From Candidatus Auribacterota bacterium (GTDB taxonomy: Bacteria > Auribacterota > UBA6266): DNA of 7,871 bases. The stretch is taken from assembly GCA_023136205.1 (NCBI GenBank), contig JAGLRQ010000113.1, forward strand, positions 1 through 7,871. The letters are read 5' to 3'. Positions 1-6,771 of the stretch are shown here, in pieces (position 1 is the stretch's first letter; every line of letters begins with the position of its first letter). A program made the translations under genes and the position numbers. The notes beneath the pieces are model-generated. The model was not told the origin of the DNA. It ran no database searches and saw nothing but the letters and a program-made list of their open reading frames with translations.

Positions 1-720
1 TCAAAAGAAATCAATCTTCCGTTTTTTAAGAGTTTAATCGAAAAACTTCCTTTTGTCACGGTTAAGTCCGCTGTTTCTATGGATGGTAAAATAGCGGCAA
101 AAACAGGAGATTCTAAATGGATTTCTTCAATTGAATCAAGAAAATACGGCCATTTATTAAGGAAAGAGGCGGATGCGGTTCTTACCGGGATTAATACTGT
201 AATCAAAGATGACCCCTTGTTTACCGTAAGACATGTTAAAAGTGCAAAGGATATTATAAGAGTAATTGTTGATACAAATTGCCGTTTGCCTTTGGAAAGC
301 AATATTGTGCGCAAGCGGCCGGAATTGACTTTGGTTGCTGTCGGGAAAGATATTGCAAAAACAAAAATCAAAAGATTGAAAGATCTTGGGCTGGAAGTCC
401 TGGAGGTTGATAGGGATAACAGCGGGAAGATCAACCTGAAAAAATTGCTCAAAATACTTTCAGCCAGGGGTATTAATAATATTCTCTGCGAATCCGGAGG
501 TTCTTTGACAGCATCTCTCTTTAAGAACAAGCTGGTTGACCGCATCGTGTTTTTTATATCCCCAATGATTATTGGGGGCAAAGATGCTCCTACAGCGGTG
601 GAAGGCAACGGGGTGAAGAAAATCGATTCCGCCGTAAAAATAGAAAACACAAAGATGAAAAAATCAGGGGGAGATTTTATGATTACCGGTGATGTTAACA
701 CGGAATGGAGGAATTTTTAA
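1..720 (+). CDS. ribD: Riboflavin biosynthesis protein RibD, C-terminal 5-amino-6-(5-phosphoribosylamino)uracil reductase domain; 5'-truncated by the window edge
   Basis: Frame 1 is open from base 1 (SKEINLPFFKSLIEKLPFVTVKSAVSMDGKIA...), so the ATG at 79 is internal. The PFVT-K-x-A-x-S-x-DGKIA motif, the SR..GH.LR...DAVL.G..TV..DDP.FTVR block and the CE.GG.L..SL block match the RibD reductase domain layout. Stop TAA at 718-720. Riboflavin synthase follows directly. Confidence 0.85.
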   Translation, partial: SKEINLPFFKSLIEKLPFVTVKSAVSMDGKIAAKTGDSKWISSIESRKYGHLLRKEADAVLTGINTVIKDDPLFTVRHVKSAKDIIRVIVDTNCRLPLESNIVRKRPELTLVAVGKDIAKTKIKRLKDLGLEVLEVDRDNSGKINLKKLLKILSARGINNILCESGGSLTASLFKNKLVDRIVFFISPMIIGGKDAPTAVEGNGVKKIDSAVKIENTKMKKSGGDFMITGDVNTEWRNF

Positions 721-722
721 GA

Positions 723-1358
723 ATGTTTACCGGGATAATAGAGTCTGTTGGCGTTATTTTAAGAATTGGAAAAAAATCAGGGAATCTGGAAATTGAAATA
801 GAGGCTTTGAATTTCCTTGATGATGTCGGGATTGGCGACAGTATATCTGTAGATGGAATCTGTTTAAGCGTTTGCAGTAAAACGGGTGAGTCTTTTTGCG
901 CAAACCTTCTTGCTGAAACCGTAAAAAGATCTACATTTGATTCGGCATGCGCAGGCCGAAAGGTAAACCTGGAAAAATCTTTGAAATCCGGATCGCGTTT
1001 CTCAGGGCACATAGTTACGGGACACGTTGACGAAACGGGAGAAATTCTGGAAGCAAAAAATTATTCCGGAGATATGGAGTTAAAAATAAAAATCCGTCCG
1101 GAGACTGTAAAATATATTGTGGAGAAAGGTTCTGTTGCTGTAAACGGTGTTAGCTTAACAGTGGTAAATGAGGGGAAAGATTATTTTACGGTTCGGCTGA
1201 TTCCTTTGACAGCGGGAAAAACGAATTTAGATAAAGTTCGAAAGGGTAACAAGGTAAACATAGAAGCCGATATTCTTGCTAAATATGCCGCTAAAGCATC
1301 CGGCAGGAATAAACCATCTAAAATAACCCTCAAGTTTCTCAAAGAAAAAGGTTTTTAA
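723..1358 (+). CDS. ribE: Riboflavin synthase (alpha chain)
   Basis: The canonical N-terminus MFTGIIE begins at ATG 723, with GGAGG at 708-712 about 10 nt upstream. The track start at 705 only adds MEEFLR. The duplicated lumazine-binding repeat layout is present (GDSISVDGICLSV... and GSVAVNGVSLTV...). It can be laid alongside E. coli riboflavin synthase from memory (GHxxxGHV, LIPxT, VNIExD). Confidence 0.9.
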   Translation: MFTGIIESVGVILRIGKKSGNLEIEIEALNFLDDVGIGDSISVDGICLSVCSKTGESFCANLLAETVKRSTFDSACAGRKVNLEKSLKSGSRFSGHIVTGHVDETGEILEAKNYSGDMELKIKIRPETVKYIVEKGSVAVNGVSLTVVNEGKDYFTVRLIPLTAGKTNLDKVRKGNKVNIEADILAKYAAKASGRNKPSKITLKFLKEKGF

Positions 1359-1375
1359 TAAAAAAGGGCCCGTTA

Positions 1376-2224
1376 GTGTACCGCTTTGTAAAATCTTGCA
1401 TTGTATTTTTAATAGTTTTTCATGGAGTTTTTTTCTTTTCATCCTTTTCCCGCTCCTCGGATGATTTAAGAATTGTATGTCTTTCTCCCGCCGCAACAGA
1501 AATATTATTTGATCTGGGTGCGGATAAGTGGCTTGCGGGAATTACAAATGAGTGTGATTATCCTCCCGCGACAAAAGGTATCCCGAAAGTCGGAACCTTT
1601 TCGAATCCTTCCGTTGAATATATTCTCGAAAAGAATCCGGATATAGTAATAACTGACGGGCTCGAACAGCAGATCATGGCTTATAATCTGCGGAAATTCG
1701 GGATAAAAACCCTGACTATTTTTCCATCGGATTTTGAAGGCCTGTTTGACGCGTATATTAAAATCGGAGATATATGCGGACTTAAAAGGGAAGCCCTTGA
1801 AAAGGTAAGGTTAATGAAAAATGATATTGGCCGGGTTCTTAAAAAAGTTAAACATCTTAAAAAAAAGCCTCAAGTATTTGTTGAGATCTGGAGTAAACCT
1901 TTGATAACAGCAGCAAAAGGTTCACACATAGATGAAGTTTTAAGGTTAGCAGGAGGAATTAATATTGCCTATAATTGCCCCCGTCCTTACAGTAGAGTCA
2001 GCCCCGAGCTTGTTATAATTTCTAATCCTGATATAATTGTTCTCGCCTATAAAGATGAAAGTAATATCGGTTTGAGGGAAGGCTGGCAGAATATTAATGC
2101 TGTTAAAAAGGGGTTTGTCTGCAATGACATCAATCCTGATTTTCTTGTAAGAGCCGGGCCCAGACTGATTGAGGGTCTGGAAAAACTGCGTAAACTTATA
2201 GAAAAATGGGATATGCAAAATTGA
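1376..2224 (+). CDS. btuF: Periplasmic substrate-binding protein of a BtuF/FecB-type (TroA-like cluster A) ABC importer; most resembles cobalamin-binding BtuF
   Basis: GTG start with AAGGG 7 nt upstream and a hydrophobic signal peptide. RIVCLSPAATEILFDLGA..LAGIT..CDYPP, KP.VFVEIWSKPLITAAKGSHIDEVLRLAGG.N, SPE.VI..NPDIIV and R.GPRLIEGLE..R match the BtuF layout as I recall it from E. coli. Aromatic residues (VGTF, RPYSRVS) sit where E. coli BtuF has its corrin-stacking Trp residues. Substrate assignment is an inference; an iron-siderophore or heme substrate is not excluded. Confidence 0.72.
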   Translation: MYRFVKSCIVFLIVFHGVFFFSSFSRSSDDLRIVCLSPAATEILFDLGADKWLAGITNECDYPPATKGIPKVGTFSNPSVEYILEKNPDIVITDGLEQQIMAYNLRKFGIKTLTIFPSDFEGLFDAYIKIGDICGLKREALEKVRLMKNDIGRVLKKVKHLKKKPQVFVEIWSKPLITAAKGSHIDEVLRLAGGINIAYNCPRPYSRVSPELVIISNPDIIVLAYKDESNIGLREGWQNINAVKKGFVCNDINPDFLVRAGPRLIEGLEKLRKLIEKWDMQN

Positions 2225-3201
2225 AGAAAATAACAGTGATATTATTAGTTGCTCTTGTAACAGCGGGTTTGTTCATGACATCCCTTCTTGTGGGCCCCGC
2301 GGATATTAATATTGGTAATATTTTTGATTATTTTTGCGGGAAATATAACCCGGTTATTCACCTGAGGTTTATGAGAGCCTGTATGGCAGTGATATCCGCT
2401 GCCGGCCTTTCAGCAGCCGGGGTATTTTTGCAGGGGTTGTTGCGAAATCCTCTTGCCGGCCCGTATATCCTCGGCATATCCGCCGGCTCAGCAATCGGCG
2501 CGGTAGGTGCAATTTGCTGCGGGCTCGGCACAGCTTTTATATTGCTTCCAGTACCTATGGTATGCGCGTTTATTGGCGCAATCATTACAATAATTGTTGT
2601 TTACAGGTTAGCTCTTAAAGACGGAAATCTGTCTGTTCAGAATCTAATACTTGCCGGAATTGCAGTTAATTCTCTACTTTCCAGCGTATTGCTTTTTGCA
2701 ATATACTCTTCAAAAAATGAAGCGATAAACGGCATAATCTGGTGGCTGCTCGGAAGTTTACAGGTTTTTGATATTAGGATAGTTTTGTTTTCCGGGGGTA
2801 TTGTTTCGGCTTCTATTTTACTTGCTATCCCTTTAACAAAGGAATTAAATGCTGTTTCCATAGGTGATGACCTGGCAACATATGTCGGGATAAAAGTTGA
2901 ATGGATTAAAACCATTTTCTTTGTTCTTTCAGGAATTATGACAGCTGCTGTTGTGTCCAGTGTTGGAATGATCGGGTTTGTCGGACTTGTTATTCCTCAT
3001 ATAACAAGGAAGTTGTTCGGCCCTGATATCAGGGTTCTTTTACCGGCATCTGTAGTAATCGGTTCAGGATTTCTGCTTATTGCCGACATGCTTTGTAGAA
3101 TTCTCTTTATTCCGGCCGAATTGCCAATAGGAATTGTAACATCTCTGGTAGGGGCGCCGTTTTTTATTTTTATCCTGGTCATCACGAGGAAAGGTTCATG
3201 A
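2206..3201 (+). CDS. FecCD/BtuC-family ABC transporter permease (iron-chelate/cobalamin uptake type)
   Basis: 331 aa, highly hydrophobic and multi-spanning, with Gly/Ala-rich helices typical of FecCD permeases (LRNPLAGPYILGISAGSAIGA, GMIGFVGLVIPHI.R, LP.GIVTSL.GAPFFI.IL). Overlaps the PBP stop by 19 nt. An alternative TTG start at 2221 would give a TTGA-type overlap. The end overlaps the ATPase start (ATGA at 3198-3201). Confidence 0.85.
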   Translation: MGYAKLKKITVILLVALVTAGLFMTSLLVGPADINIGNIFDYFCGKYNPVIHLRFMRACMAVISAAGLSAAGVFLQGLLRNPLAGPYILGISAGSAIGAVGAICCGLGTAFILLPVPMVCAFIGAIITIIVVYRLALKDGNLSVQNLILAGIAVNSLLSSVLLFAIYSSKNEAINGIIWWLLGSLQVFDIRIVLFSGGIVSASILLAIPLTKELNAVSIGDDLATYVGIKVEWIKTIFFVLSGIMTAAVVSSVGMIGFVGLVIPHITRKLFGPDIRVLLPASVVIGSGFLLIADMLCRILFIPAELPIGIVTSLVGAPFFIFILVITRKGS

Positions 3202-3965
3202 AAAATAATATTCTTGAATTAAAAGATGTAACGGCGGGATATGGTTCCAAAGAGGTTCTTAAAAACATTTCCTTCTTCGTAAAAGAAGGGTCTTTTACCG
3301 GTATAATCGGGCCAAACGGTTCGGGAAAATCAACTCTTGTTAAAACTCTGGGGAACTTTTTAAAACCAGACAGGGGAATCATTTATTACCGCGAAACCGA
3401 TGTCAGGAATATAACTCATAAAGAATATGCGAAGAAAATCACTGTAGTTCCTCAGGAAACAAAAACTGTTTTTGACTATACTGTCAGGGATTTTGTAACT
3501 ATGGGCAGGTATCCATATACGGGATTCTGGGGCACACTGTCAAAAGAAGACACAAAAGAAATCGAAGAAGTTCTATTTACAACTGGGCTTAATAAGTGTT
3601 GCGCGAAAAACATTAATGAAATGAGCGGGGGAGAAAAGCAGATGGTTTTTCTCGCAAGAGCCCTCTGTCAAAAAACTTCTCTGATAGTCCTTGATGAGCC
3701 GCTAACCTTTCTTGATATTAAACATCAAAAAATAATCATACACATCCTTGAAAAGTTCAACAAAGAAAAAGCCCTTACAGTACTGATGGTTGTACATGAT
3801 ATAAATACAGTTTTGAAACACTGTACCGATACAATAATTCTGAATGAAGGAAGTGTTTACGCTTCGGGAAACACAGAGGCAACAGTAAACAAAGAAACAA
3901 TCCGCGAGATATTTGAAACAGAAGTTGAATTTGTTAAATGCGGAGACAAAAACTTATTTTTCTGA
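3198..3965 (+). CDS. ABC transporter ATP-binding protein, BtuD/FepC/FhuC family
   Basis: Walker A GPNGSGKST, signature MSGGEKQ, Walker B LIVLDEP and H-loop VVHDIN. AGGAAAGG RBS upstream. ATGA start/stop overlap with the permease. Confidence 0.9.
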   Translation: MKNNILELKDVTAGYGSKEVLKNISFFVKEGSFTGIIGPNGSGKSTLVKTLGNFLKPDRGIIYYRETDVRNITHKEYAKKITVVPQETKTVFDYTVRDFVTMGRYPYTGFWGTLSKEDTKEIEEVLFTTGLNKCCAKNINEMSGGEKQMVFLARALCQKTSLIVLDEPLTFLDIKHQKIIIHILEKFNKEKALTVLMVVHDINTVLKHCTDTIILNEGSVYASGNTEATVNKETIREIFETEVEFVKCGDKNLFF

Positions 3966-3971
3966 TCATGT

Positions 3972-4631
3972 CTATTGTTTTATCTCAAAAACAATATTAG
4001 TGTTAAACCCTATTTCAGATTGGCCTATTTCTTTTGGAAATTTTGGAAAGAGTTTCGAAGCTTCTTTTAATACTGCTATAGCGGCGGGGGAAAATACTTC
4101 GTCAGTTGTTCTAATTACCTCAATAAAAGTTACTCTTCCTTTTTTGTTTAAATAAAAGAGTATTGTTACTTCTCCTGATACAAGCTCTCGTTTTTTTGCT
4201 TCTTCAGGAAAGTAATCTAAGGTAATTTCTGCTATAATACTATTCAATTGTTTTTGGTACTGTCTAACAAGTACAATCTGTGATGCAAATTCTTTTTTGG
4301 CTTTTTCAAGGGTTTTTCTTGATTCTTCTTTTTCAACTTCTTTTTCAGGCTGAGGTTTAATGATTTTTTTTGCCTGGGCTTTTTTTATCTGTTCCTTCTT
4401 TTTATCCTTGTTTTTTACATGAACAGAGGATGTTATTTTTGGTATTTTGATTTGCTCGGGCTGAAGCTCCGGAAATTGCGCGTAATAAAGAAGAACTTCA
4501 AGGTATTTATCCTTTTTGTTCTTAGATGCAAGCATTCTTAAAGTCGGCGATGCGCCCAGTACTATCAGGTGAATCGAGATCGAAATAAAAAATGAAAGCA
4601 ATAATAATCTATTTCTGAAAAAAGCTGCCAT
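3972..4631 (-). CDS. tonB: TonB-family energy transducer (N-terminal anchor with SxxxH motif, Lys/Glu-rich linker, TonB_C domain)
   Basis: The anchor RLLLLSFFISISIHLIVLG carries S-I-S-I-H, matching the E. coli TonB S-V-C-I-H (SxxxH) motif. The C-terminus YFPEEAKKRELVSGEVTILFYLNKKGRVTFIEVIRTTDEVFSPAAIAVLKEASKLFPKFP fits the TonB_C pattern (YP..A....G.V.v.F.i...G.v........s.....aA..a......P.P). I prefer the ATG at 4631 (purine-rich AGAGAGA upstream) over the track's GTG at 4703, which lacks any SD. That start would add a 24-aa non-TonB-like extension through a GC-rich hairpin. Confidence 0.8.
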   Translation of the reverse strand: MAAFFRNRLLLLSFFISISIHLIVLGASPTLRMLASKNKKDKYLEVLLYYAQFPELQPEQIKIPKITSSVHVKNKDKKKEQIKKAQAKKIIKPQPEKEVEKEESRKTLEKAKKEFASQIVLVRQYQKQLNSIIAEITLDYFPEEAKKRELVSGEVTILFYLNKKGRVTFIEVIRTTDEVFSPAAIAVLKEASKLFPKFPKEIGQSEIGFNTNIVFEIKQ

Positions 4632-4803
4632 AATTTCTCTCTTTGTGAATCGTATAAAAGCCGTATGTAGTCCCCTCAGGGGAGGCTGCGCTACGCTTCG
4701 CACTATCTTGTGAATTGATTAAATACTACACAACAAGTGTGCTATTAACAAGTGTCAAATATATTAATATCGAAATTTTAATAAAATTTAACTGAATAAA
4801 TTC

Positions 4804-4831
4804 TTGACATAACAGAAAAAGAGTATAAAAT
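4804..4831 (+). promoter_or_regulatory. Sigma70-like promoter of the riboswitch-controlled operon (TTGACA-16 nt-TAAAAT)
   Basis: Perfect -35 TTGACA at 4804-4809. -10 TAAAAT at 4826-4831 after a 16-nt spacer. It lies about 30 nt upstream of the riboswitch aptamer. Confidence 0.6.
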
Positions 4832-4861
4832 GATGCCGACTTTTGTTCTTTAATTTTTAGT

Positions 4862-4960
4862 TATGGTTTTCAGTGTCAGGGAAATCCCGTGAGAGCCGGG
4901 AGCTGGGCCGCAGCTGTAATCGGTGTAAAACCGTAAGCCAGAATACCTGTCTGAAAAAAA
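4862..4960 (+). promoter_or_regulatory. Cobalamin (B12) riboswitch aptamer, Rfam RF00174-like
   Basis: B12 box AAGCCAGAATACCTGTCT at 4935-4952 matches the consensus rAGYCMGgAgaCCkGCcd at 15 of 18 positions. Core cAGGGAAatCCCGTGAGAGCCGGGAGCTGGGCCGCAGCTGTAA at 4877-4919 parallels the conserved AGGGAA...GGTG.(A)A.CC...GC.GC..CTGTAA layout. Closing helices are TTTTCAG(4867-4873)/CTGAAAA(4951-4957) and CAGG(4877-4880)/CCTG(4946-4949). There is a peripheral hairpin CGGT-gtaaa-ACCG at 4921-4933. Boundaries are approximate. Confidence 0.88.
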
Positions 4961-4994
4961 TTTAATCTTCTCCGGAACCGAGAAAAGACGAAGG

Positions 4995-5028
4995 CCCGTT
5001 CTCACAAAAAGGAGAAACGGGTTTTTTT
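4995..5028 (+). terminator. Intrinsic terminator forming the riboswitch expression platform (transcription attenuation)
   Basis: Stem CCCGTTCTC (4995-5003) pairs with GAGAAACGGG (5012-5021) with one bulged A, followed by T7 at 5022-5028. It lies between the aptamer and the RBS (AAGGAG 5053-5058) of the ORF starting at 5066. Confidence 0.8.
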
Positions 5029-5065
5029 GTTGTCTGAAACCGGAGGCAACGAAAGGAGCAGTTAG

Positions 5066-5983
5066 ATGTGTAAGTTTTTATTGAGCAGTTTTTTGGTTTT
5101 GTTGTGTGTATCGCCTCTTGCTTTTTCAGAGGTAGCTTCATGGACTGAGGATTTCAGCAGCCCTTCCGGATGGACATACGAAGGGGAAACAGGGACTCAG
5201 CTTTTTACCCATAATGGGACTCAGGGCAATGTTAACGCGCTATGGAAATCAGATAAGAGCACCAGCCGCTATTACAAGAGCTTGGGCGGAAGTATAACAG
5301 AATCAAGTTCTTTCTCTTTCGGGTGTGATTTACAGATAAACGATCTGGTACAGAACCCTTGGGGTATGCAAATTGGTTTTGGCCTTTTTAATACCGCTAA
5401 TACCGGTGATAACAGGGTAGGTTATTATGACGGAGACTGGGGTTACCATAGTGGAAATACTATAAATACATTTGAATTAAGTTATTTCCCTTATCAAGAC
5501 GGATGGGGAGGGCCATGGTTTGGAGGAACCATAATGCCCGAGGTTGATAATGAGCCTGGCGAACCCGGGAATCAGGTCAAGATTGTTTATTCCGGCGAAA
5601 CTGTCACATATAAAACTGTGGGATTTGACGAAGGGGCACTCCCTTACGATGCTTGGCTGTACACAGAAGCTACATACGACGGAAGCTCTAAAGAAGCGCT
5701 TTTTAGCATATATACCAACCAAGAAAAAACAACACTTCTATCTGTAAACGGACAGATAGCTCAGTCTTCCTTTATTTATACCGGAGACGCTTTCTCGGTA
5801 GATGCTTTAGGGTTTTTTAGTTATTACGATTATCTGGACAGTACCCCTGTTTCTCCTTCACTTAGTGGTGTTGGCATTTTTGATAATGCTTACTTTAATG
5901 TGGTTCCGGAACCTTCCAGTTGGATATGCTTTACCTTAGGGCTGGTTTCACTATGGTGTTTTAAAAGAAAGAAAACCGCATGA
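5066..5983 (+). CDS. Secreted PEP-CTERM-anchored protein of unknown function, aromatic/Gly-rich; a beta-sandwich fold is a guess
   Basis: AAGGAG RBS 7 nt upstream. Signal peptide MCKFLLSSFLVLLCVSPLAFS|EV. The C-terminal sorting signal VPEP-SSWICFTLGLVSLWCF-KRKK (nt 5903-5980) is a textbook PEP-CTERM: motif, TM helix, basic tail. The mature region is rich in W/Y/G (GDWGYHSG, DGWGGPWFGG). It starts W.EDF and ends IFDNAYF, reminiscent of LamG/concanavalin-like modules. I recognise no characterised family. Confidence 0.8.
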   Translation: MCKFLLSSFLVLLCVSPLAFSEVASWTEDFSSPSGWTYEGETGTQLFTHNGTQGNVNALWKSDKSTSRYYKSLGGSITESSSFSFGCDLQINDLVQNPWGMQIGFGLFNTANTGDNRVGYYDGDWGYHSGNTINTFELSYFPYQDGWGGPWFGGTIMPEVDNEPGEPGNQVKIVYSGETVTYKTVGFDEGALPYDAWLYTEATYDGSSKEALFSIYTNQEKTTLLSVNGQIAQSSFIYTGDAFSVDALGFFSYYDYLDSTPVSPSLSGVGIFDNAYFNVVPEPSSWICFTLGLVSLWCFKRKKTA

Positions 5984-6771
5984 AAAAAAATATCCCGTTA
6001 GAGATTAAAGAAAAAAATTGTGTTTTATCATCTCTAACGGGATTTACATTAATTGAATTACTGGTTGTTATCGCGATAGCCTCTCTCATGATATCTTTTC
6101 TCCTGCCCGCGTTGCTGGAGGCAAAAGAAACAGCCAAAAAATGTGTCTGTATTTCTAATTTAAAACAGTTATATCTTGCGACAAGCCTTTACCTTCAGGA
6201 TAACGATGATGTTTTTTTCCCGCATTACGTCAAAAAAGGAGCAGATAGGTTGTGGTGGTTTGGCTATGAACCAAATTTCAATACCGGTATACCTGAAGGA
6301 AGCAGAGAAATTTATCTGACAAAGTCTTTTTTATACCCCTACATAAGAAACATAGGGGGTATCGAAAAATGCCCTTCATTTAACTATAATGACCCCAAAT
6401 GGAAACCAAAATTTAAGTGTGCTACATATGGTTACGGTTATAATTCCCTGGGCCTCCAGGAGAAGAAGACCAGTGAAATAAAGGATTTAGCAAACACAGT
6501 ACTTTTTGCGGACTGCGCTCAGATTAATACATTCCAGGCACCGGCATCACCAACTAACCCCATGATTGAAGAGTTTTATTATATAAGCCCTTATCCGTTT
6601 GAAAAGCTGATTCACTTCAGGCACAATGGTTTGGCAAATGTCCTTTTCTGTGACGGCCACATTGACGCTATGAGACCTTTTCCCGGAACTGAAGATCCAA
6701 AAGGAAAGCAAATCGGACACATAGTCGGCAGAATCAACCCACCCGCGGATTTCTCCATGTTTAATTTATAG
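5980..6771 (+). CDS. Prepilin-type N-terminal cleavage/methylation domain protein with H-X9-DG motif (DUF1559-type pseudopilin-like protein)
   Basis: Leader MKKNIPLEIKEKNCVLSSLTG, then FTLIELLVVIAIASLM: a class III signal with G|F cleavage and Glu at +5. The NLKQLYLATSLYLQDNDD block is typical of DUF1559. HNGLANVLFCDG at nt 6622-6657 is an exact H-X9-DG. Its ATG overlaps the upstream stop (ATGA at 5980-5983), implying translational coupling. Confidence 0.85.
   Translation: MKKNIPLEIKEKNCVLSSLTGFTLIELLVVIAIASLMISFLLPALLEAKETAKKCVCISNLKQLYLATSLYLQDNDDVFFPHYVKKGADRLWWFGYEPNFNTGIPEGSREIYLTKSFLYPYIRNIGGIEKCPSFNYNDPKWKPKFKCATYGYGYNSLGLQEKKTSEIKDLANTVLFADCAQINTFQAPASPTNPMIEEFYYISPYPFEKLIHFRHNGLANVLFCDGHIDAMRPFPGTEDPKGKQIGHIVGRINPPADFSMFNL

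Follow-up and report, generated by a model that had tools for sequence, protein, structure and literature searches.

Known corrinoid-capture systems and the Auribacterota locus

Accessory surface proteins that capture vitamin B12 are, to our knowledge, known only from Bacteroidetes (BtuG, BtuH, and BtuJ), in which they decide competitive fitness. BtuG, a beta-propeller of seven blades, docks on BtuB, a TonB-dependent transporter. Both BtuG and BtuH are lipoproteins, and their genes lie behind B12 riboswitches and adjoin transport genes (PMC13398666). BtuJ1 and BtuJ2 represent the DUF4465 family, a beta-jellyroll with experimentally established B12 binding, whose B12-binding members come from Bacteroides, Verrucomicrobia (Coraliomargarita, Haloferula), and a planctomycete (PMC13398666).

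The stretch of DNA considered here, hereafter the window, comprises 7,871 nucleotides of a contig from a Candidatus Auribacterota bacterium (JAGLRQ010000113.1). Directly behind a cobalamin riboswitch (4847–4968, +) it carries two overlapping genes on the same strand: 5066–5983, an open reading frame (ORF) of 305 amino acids (aa) that encodes an exported protein with a predicted ConA/legume-lectin-like domain, and 5980–6771, which encodes a prepilin-type, pilin-like protein of 263 aa. The two genes probably constitute a cobalamin-riboswitch-repressed cassette, for which extracellular corrinoid scavenging is the most likely purpose, and by analogy a role in corrinoid capture is well supported by the genomic context. 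The original prediction had proposed that the 5066–5983 protein acts analogously to BtuG or BtuH; this analogy has since been strengthened by a riboswitch linkage that crosses phyla and by a genomic slot that is shared with DUF4465/BtuJ or propeller proteins. That prediction overlooked the translationally coupled pilin-like partner, which we deem the most unusual part of the locus.

How does this arrangement compare with the described systems? Like the BtuJ/DUF4465 proteins (B. thetaiotaomicron, Coraliomargarita, Haloferula, Mucisphaera; PDB 9FCT, 9I2L, 9HMU), the ConA-like protein is exported and belongs to the all-beta jellyroll class; both are encoded in B12-riboswitch-controlled loci, and DUF4465 proteins occupy the identical slot in three loci (L031, L040, L085; PMC13398666). 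In contrast, no similarity between the two is detectable by sequence or profile, the anchor is a PEP-CTERM tail or an "FYRV" module here and a lipid in BtuJ, and B12 binding is proven there and a candidate property here. As regards the augmented jellyroll of 9FCT and 9HMU, the model is a beta-sandwich of the jellyroll class, and DUF4465 entries are absent from the 50 structural matches listed. With BtuG and BtuH the protein shares the proposed role, accessory capture of corrinoids at the surface behind B12 riboswitches (PMC13398666). It differs from BtuG in architecture, being modeled as a single beta-sandwich, a ConA-like jellyroll, instead of a propeller, and in having a pilin-like protein as its fixed partner. 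Riboswitch-controlled accessory B12-binding surface proteins are already known; what the locus adds is a new family and a new, unexpected fixed partner.

Conservation of the riboswitch-controlled cassette

The locus survey was seeded from the pilin-like partner; the alignment of the ConA-like family (A3) has no conserved stretch of 7–10 residues. From the 133 species-level genomes that encode the pilin subfamily, 80 loci were sampled, mostly from Verrucomicrobiota, with additional ones from Planctomycetota, Kiritimatiellia, and Auribacterota, and the 73 with at least 1.5 kb of upstream sequence were counted. A same-strand cobalamin riboswitch lies upstream of the pilin-like gene in 62 of the 73 (85%), as compared with a rough estimate of less than 1% for the chance that a B12 riboswitch falls within 3 kb upstream of a gene. 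Between riboswitch and pilin-like gene, 52 of these 62 loci carry a ConA-like gene, to which clustering by BLAST adds several more. The riboswitch calls, made with an nhmmer profile, agreed with Rfam in every case checked (32 positives, 13 negatives). One sampled locus, L018, comes from Verrucomicrobium sp. BvORR034, the sole isolate among the genomes recovered; its pilin-like gene has neither a riboswitch nor a ConA-like gene upstream. Genomes with the cassette include GCA_016933315.1 and OY970325.1.

A search from the ConA side, independent of the pilin query, recovered riboswitch, ConA-like gene, and pilin-like gene, in this order, in each of the five loci whose flanks were long enough (L008, L091, L092, L095, L096). 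One distant homolog, P0017 (30% identity, from an unrelated metagenome-assembled genome, MAG), is preceded by a 94.5-bit cobalamin riboswitch and followed by a 267-aa prepilin-type gene whose product is 43% identical to the window partner and shares with it the DCxQINT motif and HFRH. Because the pilin-side and ConA-side surveys recover the same order, the cassette is a genuine unit, genetic as well as regulatory, that has been conserved. In the literature, we found nothing that ties cobalamin riboswitches to PEP-CTERM proteins, pseudopilins, prepilins, or DUF1559; the cassette appears to be undescribed.

This conservation bears directly on another explanation, namely that the 5066–5983 protein is a surface or biofilm protein of the ordinary kind, sorted by exosortase, and that its position behind a riboswitch is incidental or the riboswitch mainly serves another purpose. 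Such an explanation would sit well with curated models and public annotations, which name nothing beyond the PEP-CTERM tail. The linkage to the riboswitch, however, is kept across at least four phyla at 23–30% identity between the ConA-like proteins, and the PEP-CTERM tail is missing from most of the family. Since the linkage is conserved, incidental adjacency is essentially excluded, and we regard this explanation as very improbable.

The cassette also varies in gene number. Four loci (L063, L074, L078, L089) show a tandem duplication, in which riboswitch, ConA-like gene, and a short pilin-like ORF of 134–145 aa are followed by an extra copy, which is another ConA-like gene in L074 and L078 and another pilin-like ORF, of greater length, in L063 and L089. 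Four others (L019, L026, L029, L041) carry two ConA-like paralogs ahead of a single pilin-like gene. In a Verrucomicrobia MAG (L046), two Acido-Lenti-1 RNA motifs (RF01687, 57 and 61 bits) lie in opposite orientation at 3614–3659 (−) and 3755–3800 (+), after the ConA-like gene and inside the called pilin-like frame. Some of the MAGs behind loci L020, L066, L088, L035, L074, L078, L029, L053, and L054 are labeled as Bifidobacteriaceae, Akkermansia muciniphila, or Acidobacteria-type taxa; these off-group labels probably reflect mis-binning or mislabeling and not the true distribution, and the isolate codes of L035, L074, and L078 resemble an environmental sampling series.

The ConA-like family and its fold

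The mature domain of the 5066–5983 protein (5129–5899, +; aa 22–278, 257 aa) belongs to an unnamed family and is a candidate corrinoid-binding module. A word-indexed search returned five close relatives, all from Candidatus Aureabacteria/Auribacterota MAGs and 55–99% identical, and an exhaustive profile search found 221 homologs of the mature domain at E ≤ 1e-3, 19 of them at E ≤ 1e-10, with the consensus EDF..DP…YDS…T…PLG.TLT..DSF…QIAFGL.NS.TTG.DR.G…FD.VEFDYFPN…FGGP. In the window protein, Pfam and NCBIfam recognize the tail alone, and they find no domain besides the tail in ten distant relatives; public annotations read "PEP-CTERM sorting domain-containing protein" or "hypothetical protein" and nothing more informative. 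The earlier description of the protein as an orphan that matches no family thus holds for curated libraries and gives way, under profile search, to 221 distant homologs. Its observation that the mature part is rich in aromatic residues and glycine agrees with the composition of aa 22–278 (W 3.1%, Y 7.4%, F 6.6%, G 12.5%), and the motifs it quoted all occur at their places (GDWGYHSG, aa 123; YQDGWGGPWFGG, aa 143; SYYDYLD, aa 252; IFDNAYF, aa 271; VPEP, aa 280; KRKK, aa 300).

An AlphaFold model built on the five close orthologs was unusable (pLDDT 40.8) and was rebuilt on a 68-sequence alignment, which gave an all-beta model with pLDDT 87.2 and pTM 0.88 and a disordered loop at mature residues 148–164. 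Compared with the PDB by Foldseek, this model has 205 matches at E ≤ 1e-3, the best being 1sbf (E 6.6e-9, TM scores 0.56/0.61). The top matches are legume lectins and the carbohydrate-recognition domain of Emp47p, found with probability 1.0, TM scores of 0.5–0.6, 10–15% identity, and a root-mean-square deviation (rmsd) of ~6 Å. At the level of fold, the modeled domain is a two-sheet jellyroll beta-sandwich of the ConA-like lectin/glucanase superfamily, in line with the lectin-like beta-sandwich that had been proposed (AlphaFold pLDDT 87; Foldseek E 7e-9). Judging from the model, the likeness is too distant for sugar specificity to carry over. Legume lectins (soybean agglutinin, 1SBF; the Emp47p domain, 2A71) share the overall beta-sandwich jellyroll, yet they give no HMMER match, and the context here is vitamin-regulated, not glycan-related.

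Could the protein nonetheless be a true glycan-binding lectin or adhesin, such that B12 starvation induces a lectin and a pilin for attachment to B12 producers or particles? The top structural matches would suit such a role, as would the classical proximity of PEP-CTERM proteins to exopolysaccharide loci, the polysaccharide genes that lie downstream in the window lineage, and the common involvement of pilins in adhesion. However, the likeness stays at the level of fold (TM ~0.55), the B12-binding DUF4465 proteins are jellyrolls as well, the polysaccharide neighborhood is not kept outside Auribacterota, and both the DUF4465 replacement and the co-operonic BtuF-like genes described below point to direct vitamin handling. 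We therefore consider a lectin or adhesin distinctly unlikely.

Occupants of the upstream slot

The slot between riboswitch and pilin-like gene is not always filled by a ConA-like protein. In the three DUF4465 loci named above, the protein upstream of the pilin-like gene carries a PEP-CTERM tail; pilin-like partners go unmentioned in the neighborhood analysis of the DUF4465 paper (PMC13398666). Two loci (L015, 2647–3984; L016, 2545–3936) have an SGL-like beta-propeller with an FYRV-type C-terminus in the slot, another (L037, 2027–3976) has a different PEP-CTERM protein together with a propeller- or dockerin-like protein, and in two (L050, L057) the pilin-like gene has no upstream slot partner. 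Since DUF4465, a proven B12 binder, replaces the ConA-like protein non-orthologously, the ConA-like protein may itself be a corrinoid-capture module, and this replacement is the best available argument, by analogy, for such a role.

The same variability admits a different division of labor, in which the pilin-like DUF1559 protein is the true corrinoid binder or transporter and the ConA-like protein an accessory. The latter could act as anchor or chaperone, or it could be the cargo or secretion partner of a type II secretion-like pseudopilus, in which case it would be a secreted "corrinophore" expelled by the pilin-like protein. The pilin-like gene is indeed the constant element, with the upstream partner being ConA-like, DUF4465, beta-propeller, or absent; it is also the better conserved of the two (43% against 30% identity when the window is compared with L008), and some His, Cys, and Asp residues of its product are invariant in the alignment. 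That a proven B12 binder is among the replacements (PMC13398666) nevertheless suggests that it is the variable slot that binds the ligand, and DUF1559 offers no precedent in structure or function, the PDB matches of the pilin-like protein spanning its N-terminal helix alone. This division of labor is unlikely, and corrinoid capture by the ConA-like protein remains our preferred interpretation.

Some loci enlarge the operon. In L028 and L045, genes for a BtuF-like binding protein, a DUF6580 membrane protein, and a Dph6-like ATP pyrophosphatase are added to it; the Dph6-like (PF01902), DUF6580, and BtuF-like genes stand alongside the cassette in L028 (1440–3681), L045 (~1400–3643), L033, and L080. 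They lie between riboswitch and pilin-like gene in L045 and L033, and the riboswitch of L028, if there is one, is off the contig. We know of no B12 role for DUF6580 or the Dph6-like enzyme, and we found no paper that mentions the DUF6580 domain. The N-terminal domain of the PEP-CTERM protein in L037 also adjoins, or is fused to, ConA-like domains in P0007 and P0022.

The pilin-like partner

The stop codon of 5066–5983 overlaps the start codon of 5980–6771 in the sequence ATGA (5980–5983), which implies translational coupling of the two genes, as read from the sequence; overlap or tight spacing of the ConA-like and pilin-like genes is frequent in other loci. The partner (5980–6771, +) opens with a prepilin leader (…LTG|FTLIELLVV, predicted cleavage at G21|F22, with Glu at +5), which scores 21.4 bits against the N_methyl model, above its gathering score, and continues into a DUF1559/H-X9-DG-like globular domain that scores below the cutoff on both models (DUF1559, 19.1 bits; HX9DG, 16.4 bits) and bears the motif HFRH-N9-DG at ~6613–6657. 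The motif DCxQINT[FW]QAPASPxNPM[IL]EE[FW]Y marks its subfamily.

A single planctomycete or verrucomicrobial genome encodes dozens to hundreds of DUF1559 proteins, and we know of no role, function, or structure for any of them; our reading of the literature likewise found nothing on their function or regulation. With the DUF1559/H-X9-DG proteins (PF07596, TIGR04294) and the pseudopilin GspG the window partner shares the class III signal GFTLIELLVV, and with the former also the C-terminal region, whereas it stands apart from the family at large in belonging to a distinct, DCxQINT-marked subfamily tied to B12 riboswitches.

Riboswitch and expression platform

The aptamer (4847–4968, +) is a short form of the cobalamin riboswitch without the peripheral extension, and it matches RF00174 at 47.5 bits (gathering score 31.5, E 1e-9). 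Orthologous aptamers score 47.1 bits in L001 and 34.0 bits in L003; that of L007 reaches 32.7 bits on the AdoCbl-II model, under the gathering score of that model, with the core aligned. Upstream lies a putative sigma-70-like promoter (4804–4831, +; TTGACA, a 16-nt spacer, and TAAAAT), proposed from its 11 of 12 consensus matches, in a region that is conserved in the alignment with L001. No ORF intervenes between the riboswitch and 5066–5983, which is thus, as had been supposed, the first gene of the B12-riboswitch unit.

The expression platform (4968–5058, +) comprises the segment UUCUCCGG (4968–4975), an intrinsic terminator made of a bulged stem-loop and a U7 tract (4995–5028), and the Shine-Dalgarno sequence AAGGAG (5053–5058). 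The segment UUCUCCGG can pair with CCGGAGG (5040–5046), the resulting helix enclosing the terminator hairpin, and the platform folds with a minimum free energy of −37.7 kcal/mol (z-score −2.8). An automatic terminator scan overlooked the hairpin at 4995–5028 because its stem is bulged. In the alignment, hairpin, U-tract, and CCGGAG box are kept in four lineages while the stem carries substitutions, and both the terminator and the Shine-Dalgarno-sequestering helix are conserved. With an aptamer that exceeds the gathering score, lies immediately upstream on their own strand, and is followed by an expression platform, the two genes are predicted members of a cobalamin-riboswitch regulon, and the riboswitch class together with the terminator suggests that the riboswitch acts as an off-switch.

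In L001, ~230 extra AT-rich bases with a short hairpin-like repeat (4359–4620) separate tonB from the riboswitch promoter; these are missing from the window, where the corresponding place is 4704–4710 (alignment A1).

Export and anchoring

The N-terminus of the ConA-like protein, MCKFLLSSFLVLLCVSPLAFS|E, reads by eye as a Sec-type signal peptide (5066–5128, +; aa 1–21, predicted cleavage AFS|E), and a comparable hydrophobic N-terminus is present in the alignment of all Auribacterota orthologs. A lipoprotein reading was rejected, the Cys residues of the signal peptide having no lipobox before them. At the C-terminal end, a predicted PEP-CTERM sorting signal with the stop codon (5903–5983, +) consists of VPEPSS, a hydrophobic helix, and KRKK, with the full tail being VPEPSSWICFTLGLVSLWCFKRKKTA. 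It scores above the cutoff on TIGR02595 of NCBIfam (18.1 bits, cutoff 16) and just under the gathering score on PF07589 of Pfam (19.7 against 20.7), and the alignment shows it in five of five Auribacterota orthologs. Export and a PEP-CTERM tail, both foreseen in the original prediction, are thus borne out at the level of predicted motifs; to call the sorting signal unambiguous was too strong, given its borderline Pfam score.

What does not extend to the family is the anchor itself. Of 56 ConA-like proteins in cassettes, only seven have a PEP-CTERM tail and 39 end in a different module of ~70 aa, …FYRVRAxRP, an ending that the propeller proteins share and that may serve as a sorting or partner-binding module. 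Because of this uneven distribution, exosortase surface sorting is, on the sequence evidence, a lineage-specific solution and not a family property. Signal peptide, VPEP, transmembrane helix, and basic cluster are those of exosortase substrates in general. PEP-CTERM proteins are classically tied to exopolysaccharide loci (PEP-CTERM/exosortase work of Haft), which is not the conserved context here. The ~70-aa module, with which the majority of Verrucomicrobial cassette proteins end, follows the pattern LERT.D…W…G.G…D…AFYRVRAxRP without a Pfam match (L014–L090; for example L043, 2724–3896).

Proposed mechanism and significance

When corrinoids are scarce, the aptamer would remain unliganded, the terminator at 4995–5028 would not form, and both genes would be expressed. 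The ConA-like protein would be exported by the Sec pathway, freed of its signal peptide, and, in this lineage, held at the surface by its PEP-CTERM tail, where its aromatic and Gly-rich loops could capture B12 or other cobamides in the manner of BtuG, BtuH, and BtuJ in Bacteroides. Prepilin peptidase would process the pilin-like partner, which might then build a short envelope-spanning fiber or be anchored via its N-terminal helix, and which could receive the ligand and relay it towards an ABC importer with its periplasmic binding protein; in the window, the BtuFCD-like genes (1376–3965) plausibly encode these. Type IV pili have been reported for Auribacterota (PMC9324843).

Several findings weigh against this interpretation. 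First, 11 of the 73 pilin-side loci have no riboswitch, although three of these (L020, L028, L052) have their ConA-like gene close to the end of the contig, or right at it, so that a riboswitch could be off the contig. Second, homology to DUF4465 (PF14717) was rejected: there is no Pfam hit, hhalign of A3 against the DUF4465 profile gave a probability of 0.1%, and a second comparison aligned the PEP-CTERM tail alone. Third, HMMER searches of PDB sequences with the protein and the family profile gave no meaningful match, lectins included, and the nearest solved folds are those of the sugar-binding legume lectins. Fourth, the BtuF-like, FecCD, and ABC genes are outside the control of the riboswitch at 4847–4968 and only weakly BtuF-like, and the window holds no outer-membrane TonB-dependent receptor. 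Finally, the genes downstream are of the sugar-nucleotide and polysaccharide type that usually accompanies PEP-CTERM proteins, and no exosortase was seen within ~8–21 kb around the gene in contigs of the Auribacterota lineage.

Beyond this locus, it is quite possible, though somewhat short of probable, that the cassette exemplifies a module of the PVC group, by which we mean Verrucomicrobiota, Planctomycetota, Kiritimatiellia, and Auribacterota, in which a DUF1559 protein resembling type IV pilins or type II pseudopilins is combined with interchangeable extracellular corrinoid-binding heads (ConA-like, DUF4465, or beta-propeller). There is a substantial chance that the cassette represents a distinct uptake mechanism. 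If so, it would amount to a pilin-based route of vitamin capture or relay and would provide the first functional assignment within the very large DUF1559/H-X9-DG family; already now, the riboswitch offers an anchor for a candidate function of one DUF1559 subfamily. Members of the PVC group abound in soil, in freshwater, and in the ocean, and the locus points to a possible equivalent there of the Bacteroidetes capture proteins with another architecture, a new jellyroll family and a pilin-like partner. It would add a new corrinoid-binding scaffold and a genomic marker of B12 auxotrophy or scavenging in uncultured lineages.

Genomic neighborhood

Upstream of the cassette, genes assigned to ribD-C, ribE, a BtuF-like binding protein, a FecCD permease, and an ABC ATPase occupy 79–3965 (+). 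The last three (1376–3965, +), assigned by Pfam and NCBIfam models as periplasmic binding protein, FecCD-type permease, and ABC ATPase, form a candidate inner-membrane corrinoid importer; the binding protein scores 89.5 bits on the BtuF model against a cutoff of 234, which leaves its B12 assignment insecure and its substrate uncertain. Within 705–3965, these three genes follow ribE after a gap of only 17 nt and have no cobalamin riboswitch of their own. Control of the btuFCD-like genes by the riboswitch of the cassette was considered and rejected, given their position upstream of it, beyond the divergent tonB, and so close behind ribE. Downstream, 5980–6771 is followed by rpsU and then by sugar-nucleotide genes. 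The order btuFCD-like genes, tonB (opposite strand), riboswitch, ConA-like gene, pilin-like gene, and rpsU is kept with all Auribacterota orthologs (55–99% identity); the polysaccharide neighborhood is not conserved beyond Auribacterota.

Between importer genes and riboswitch lies a gene for a TonB-family protein (3972–4703, −; TonB_C 30.2 bits, above the gathering score), which is divergent from the riboswitch promoter and has a Lys/Glu-rich linker instead of the usual Pro-rich one. In L003, the array of BtuF-like, FecCD, and ABC ATPase genes is headed by an FMN riboswitch (535–669, 119 bits).

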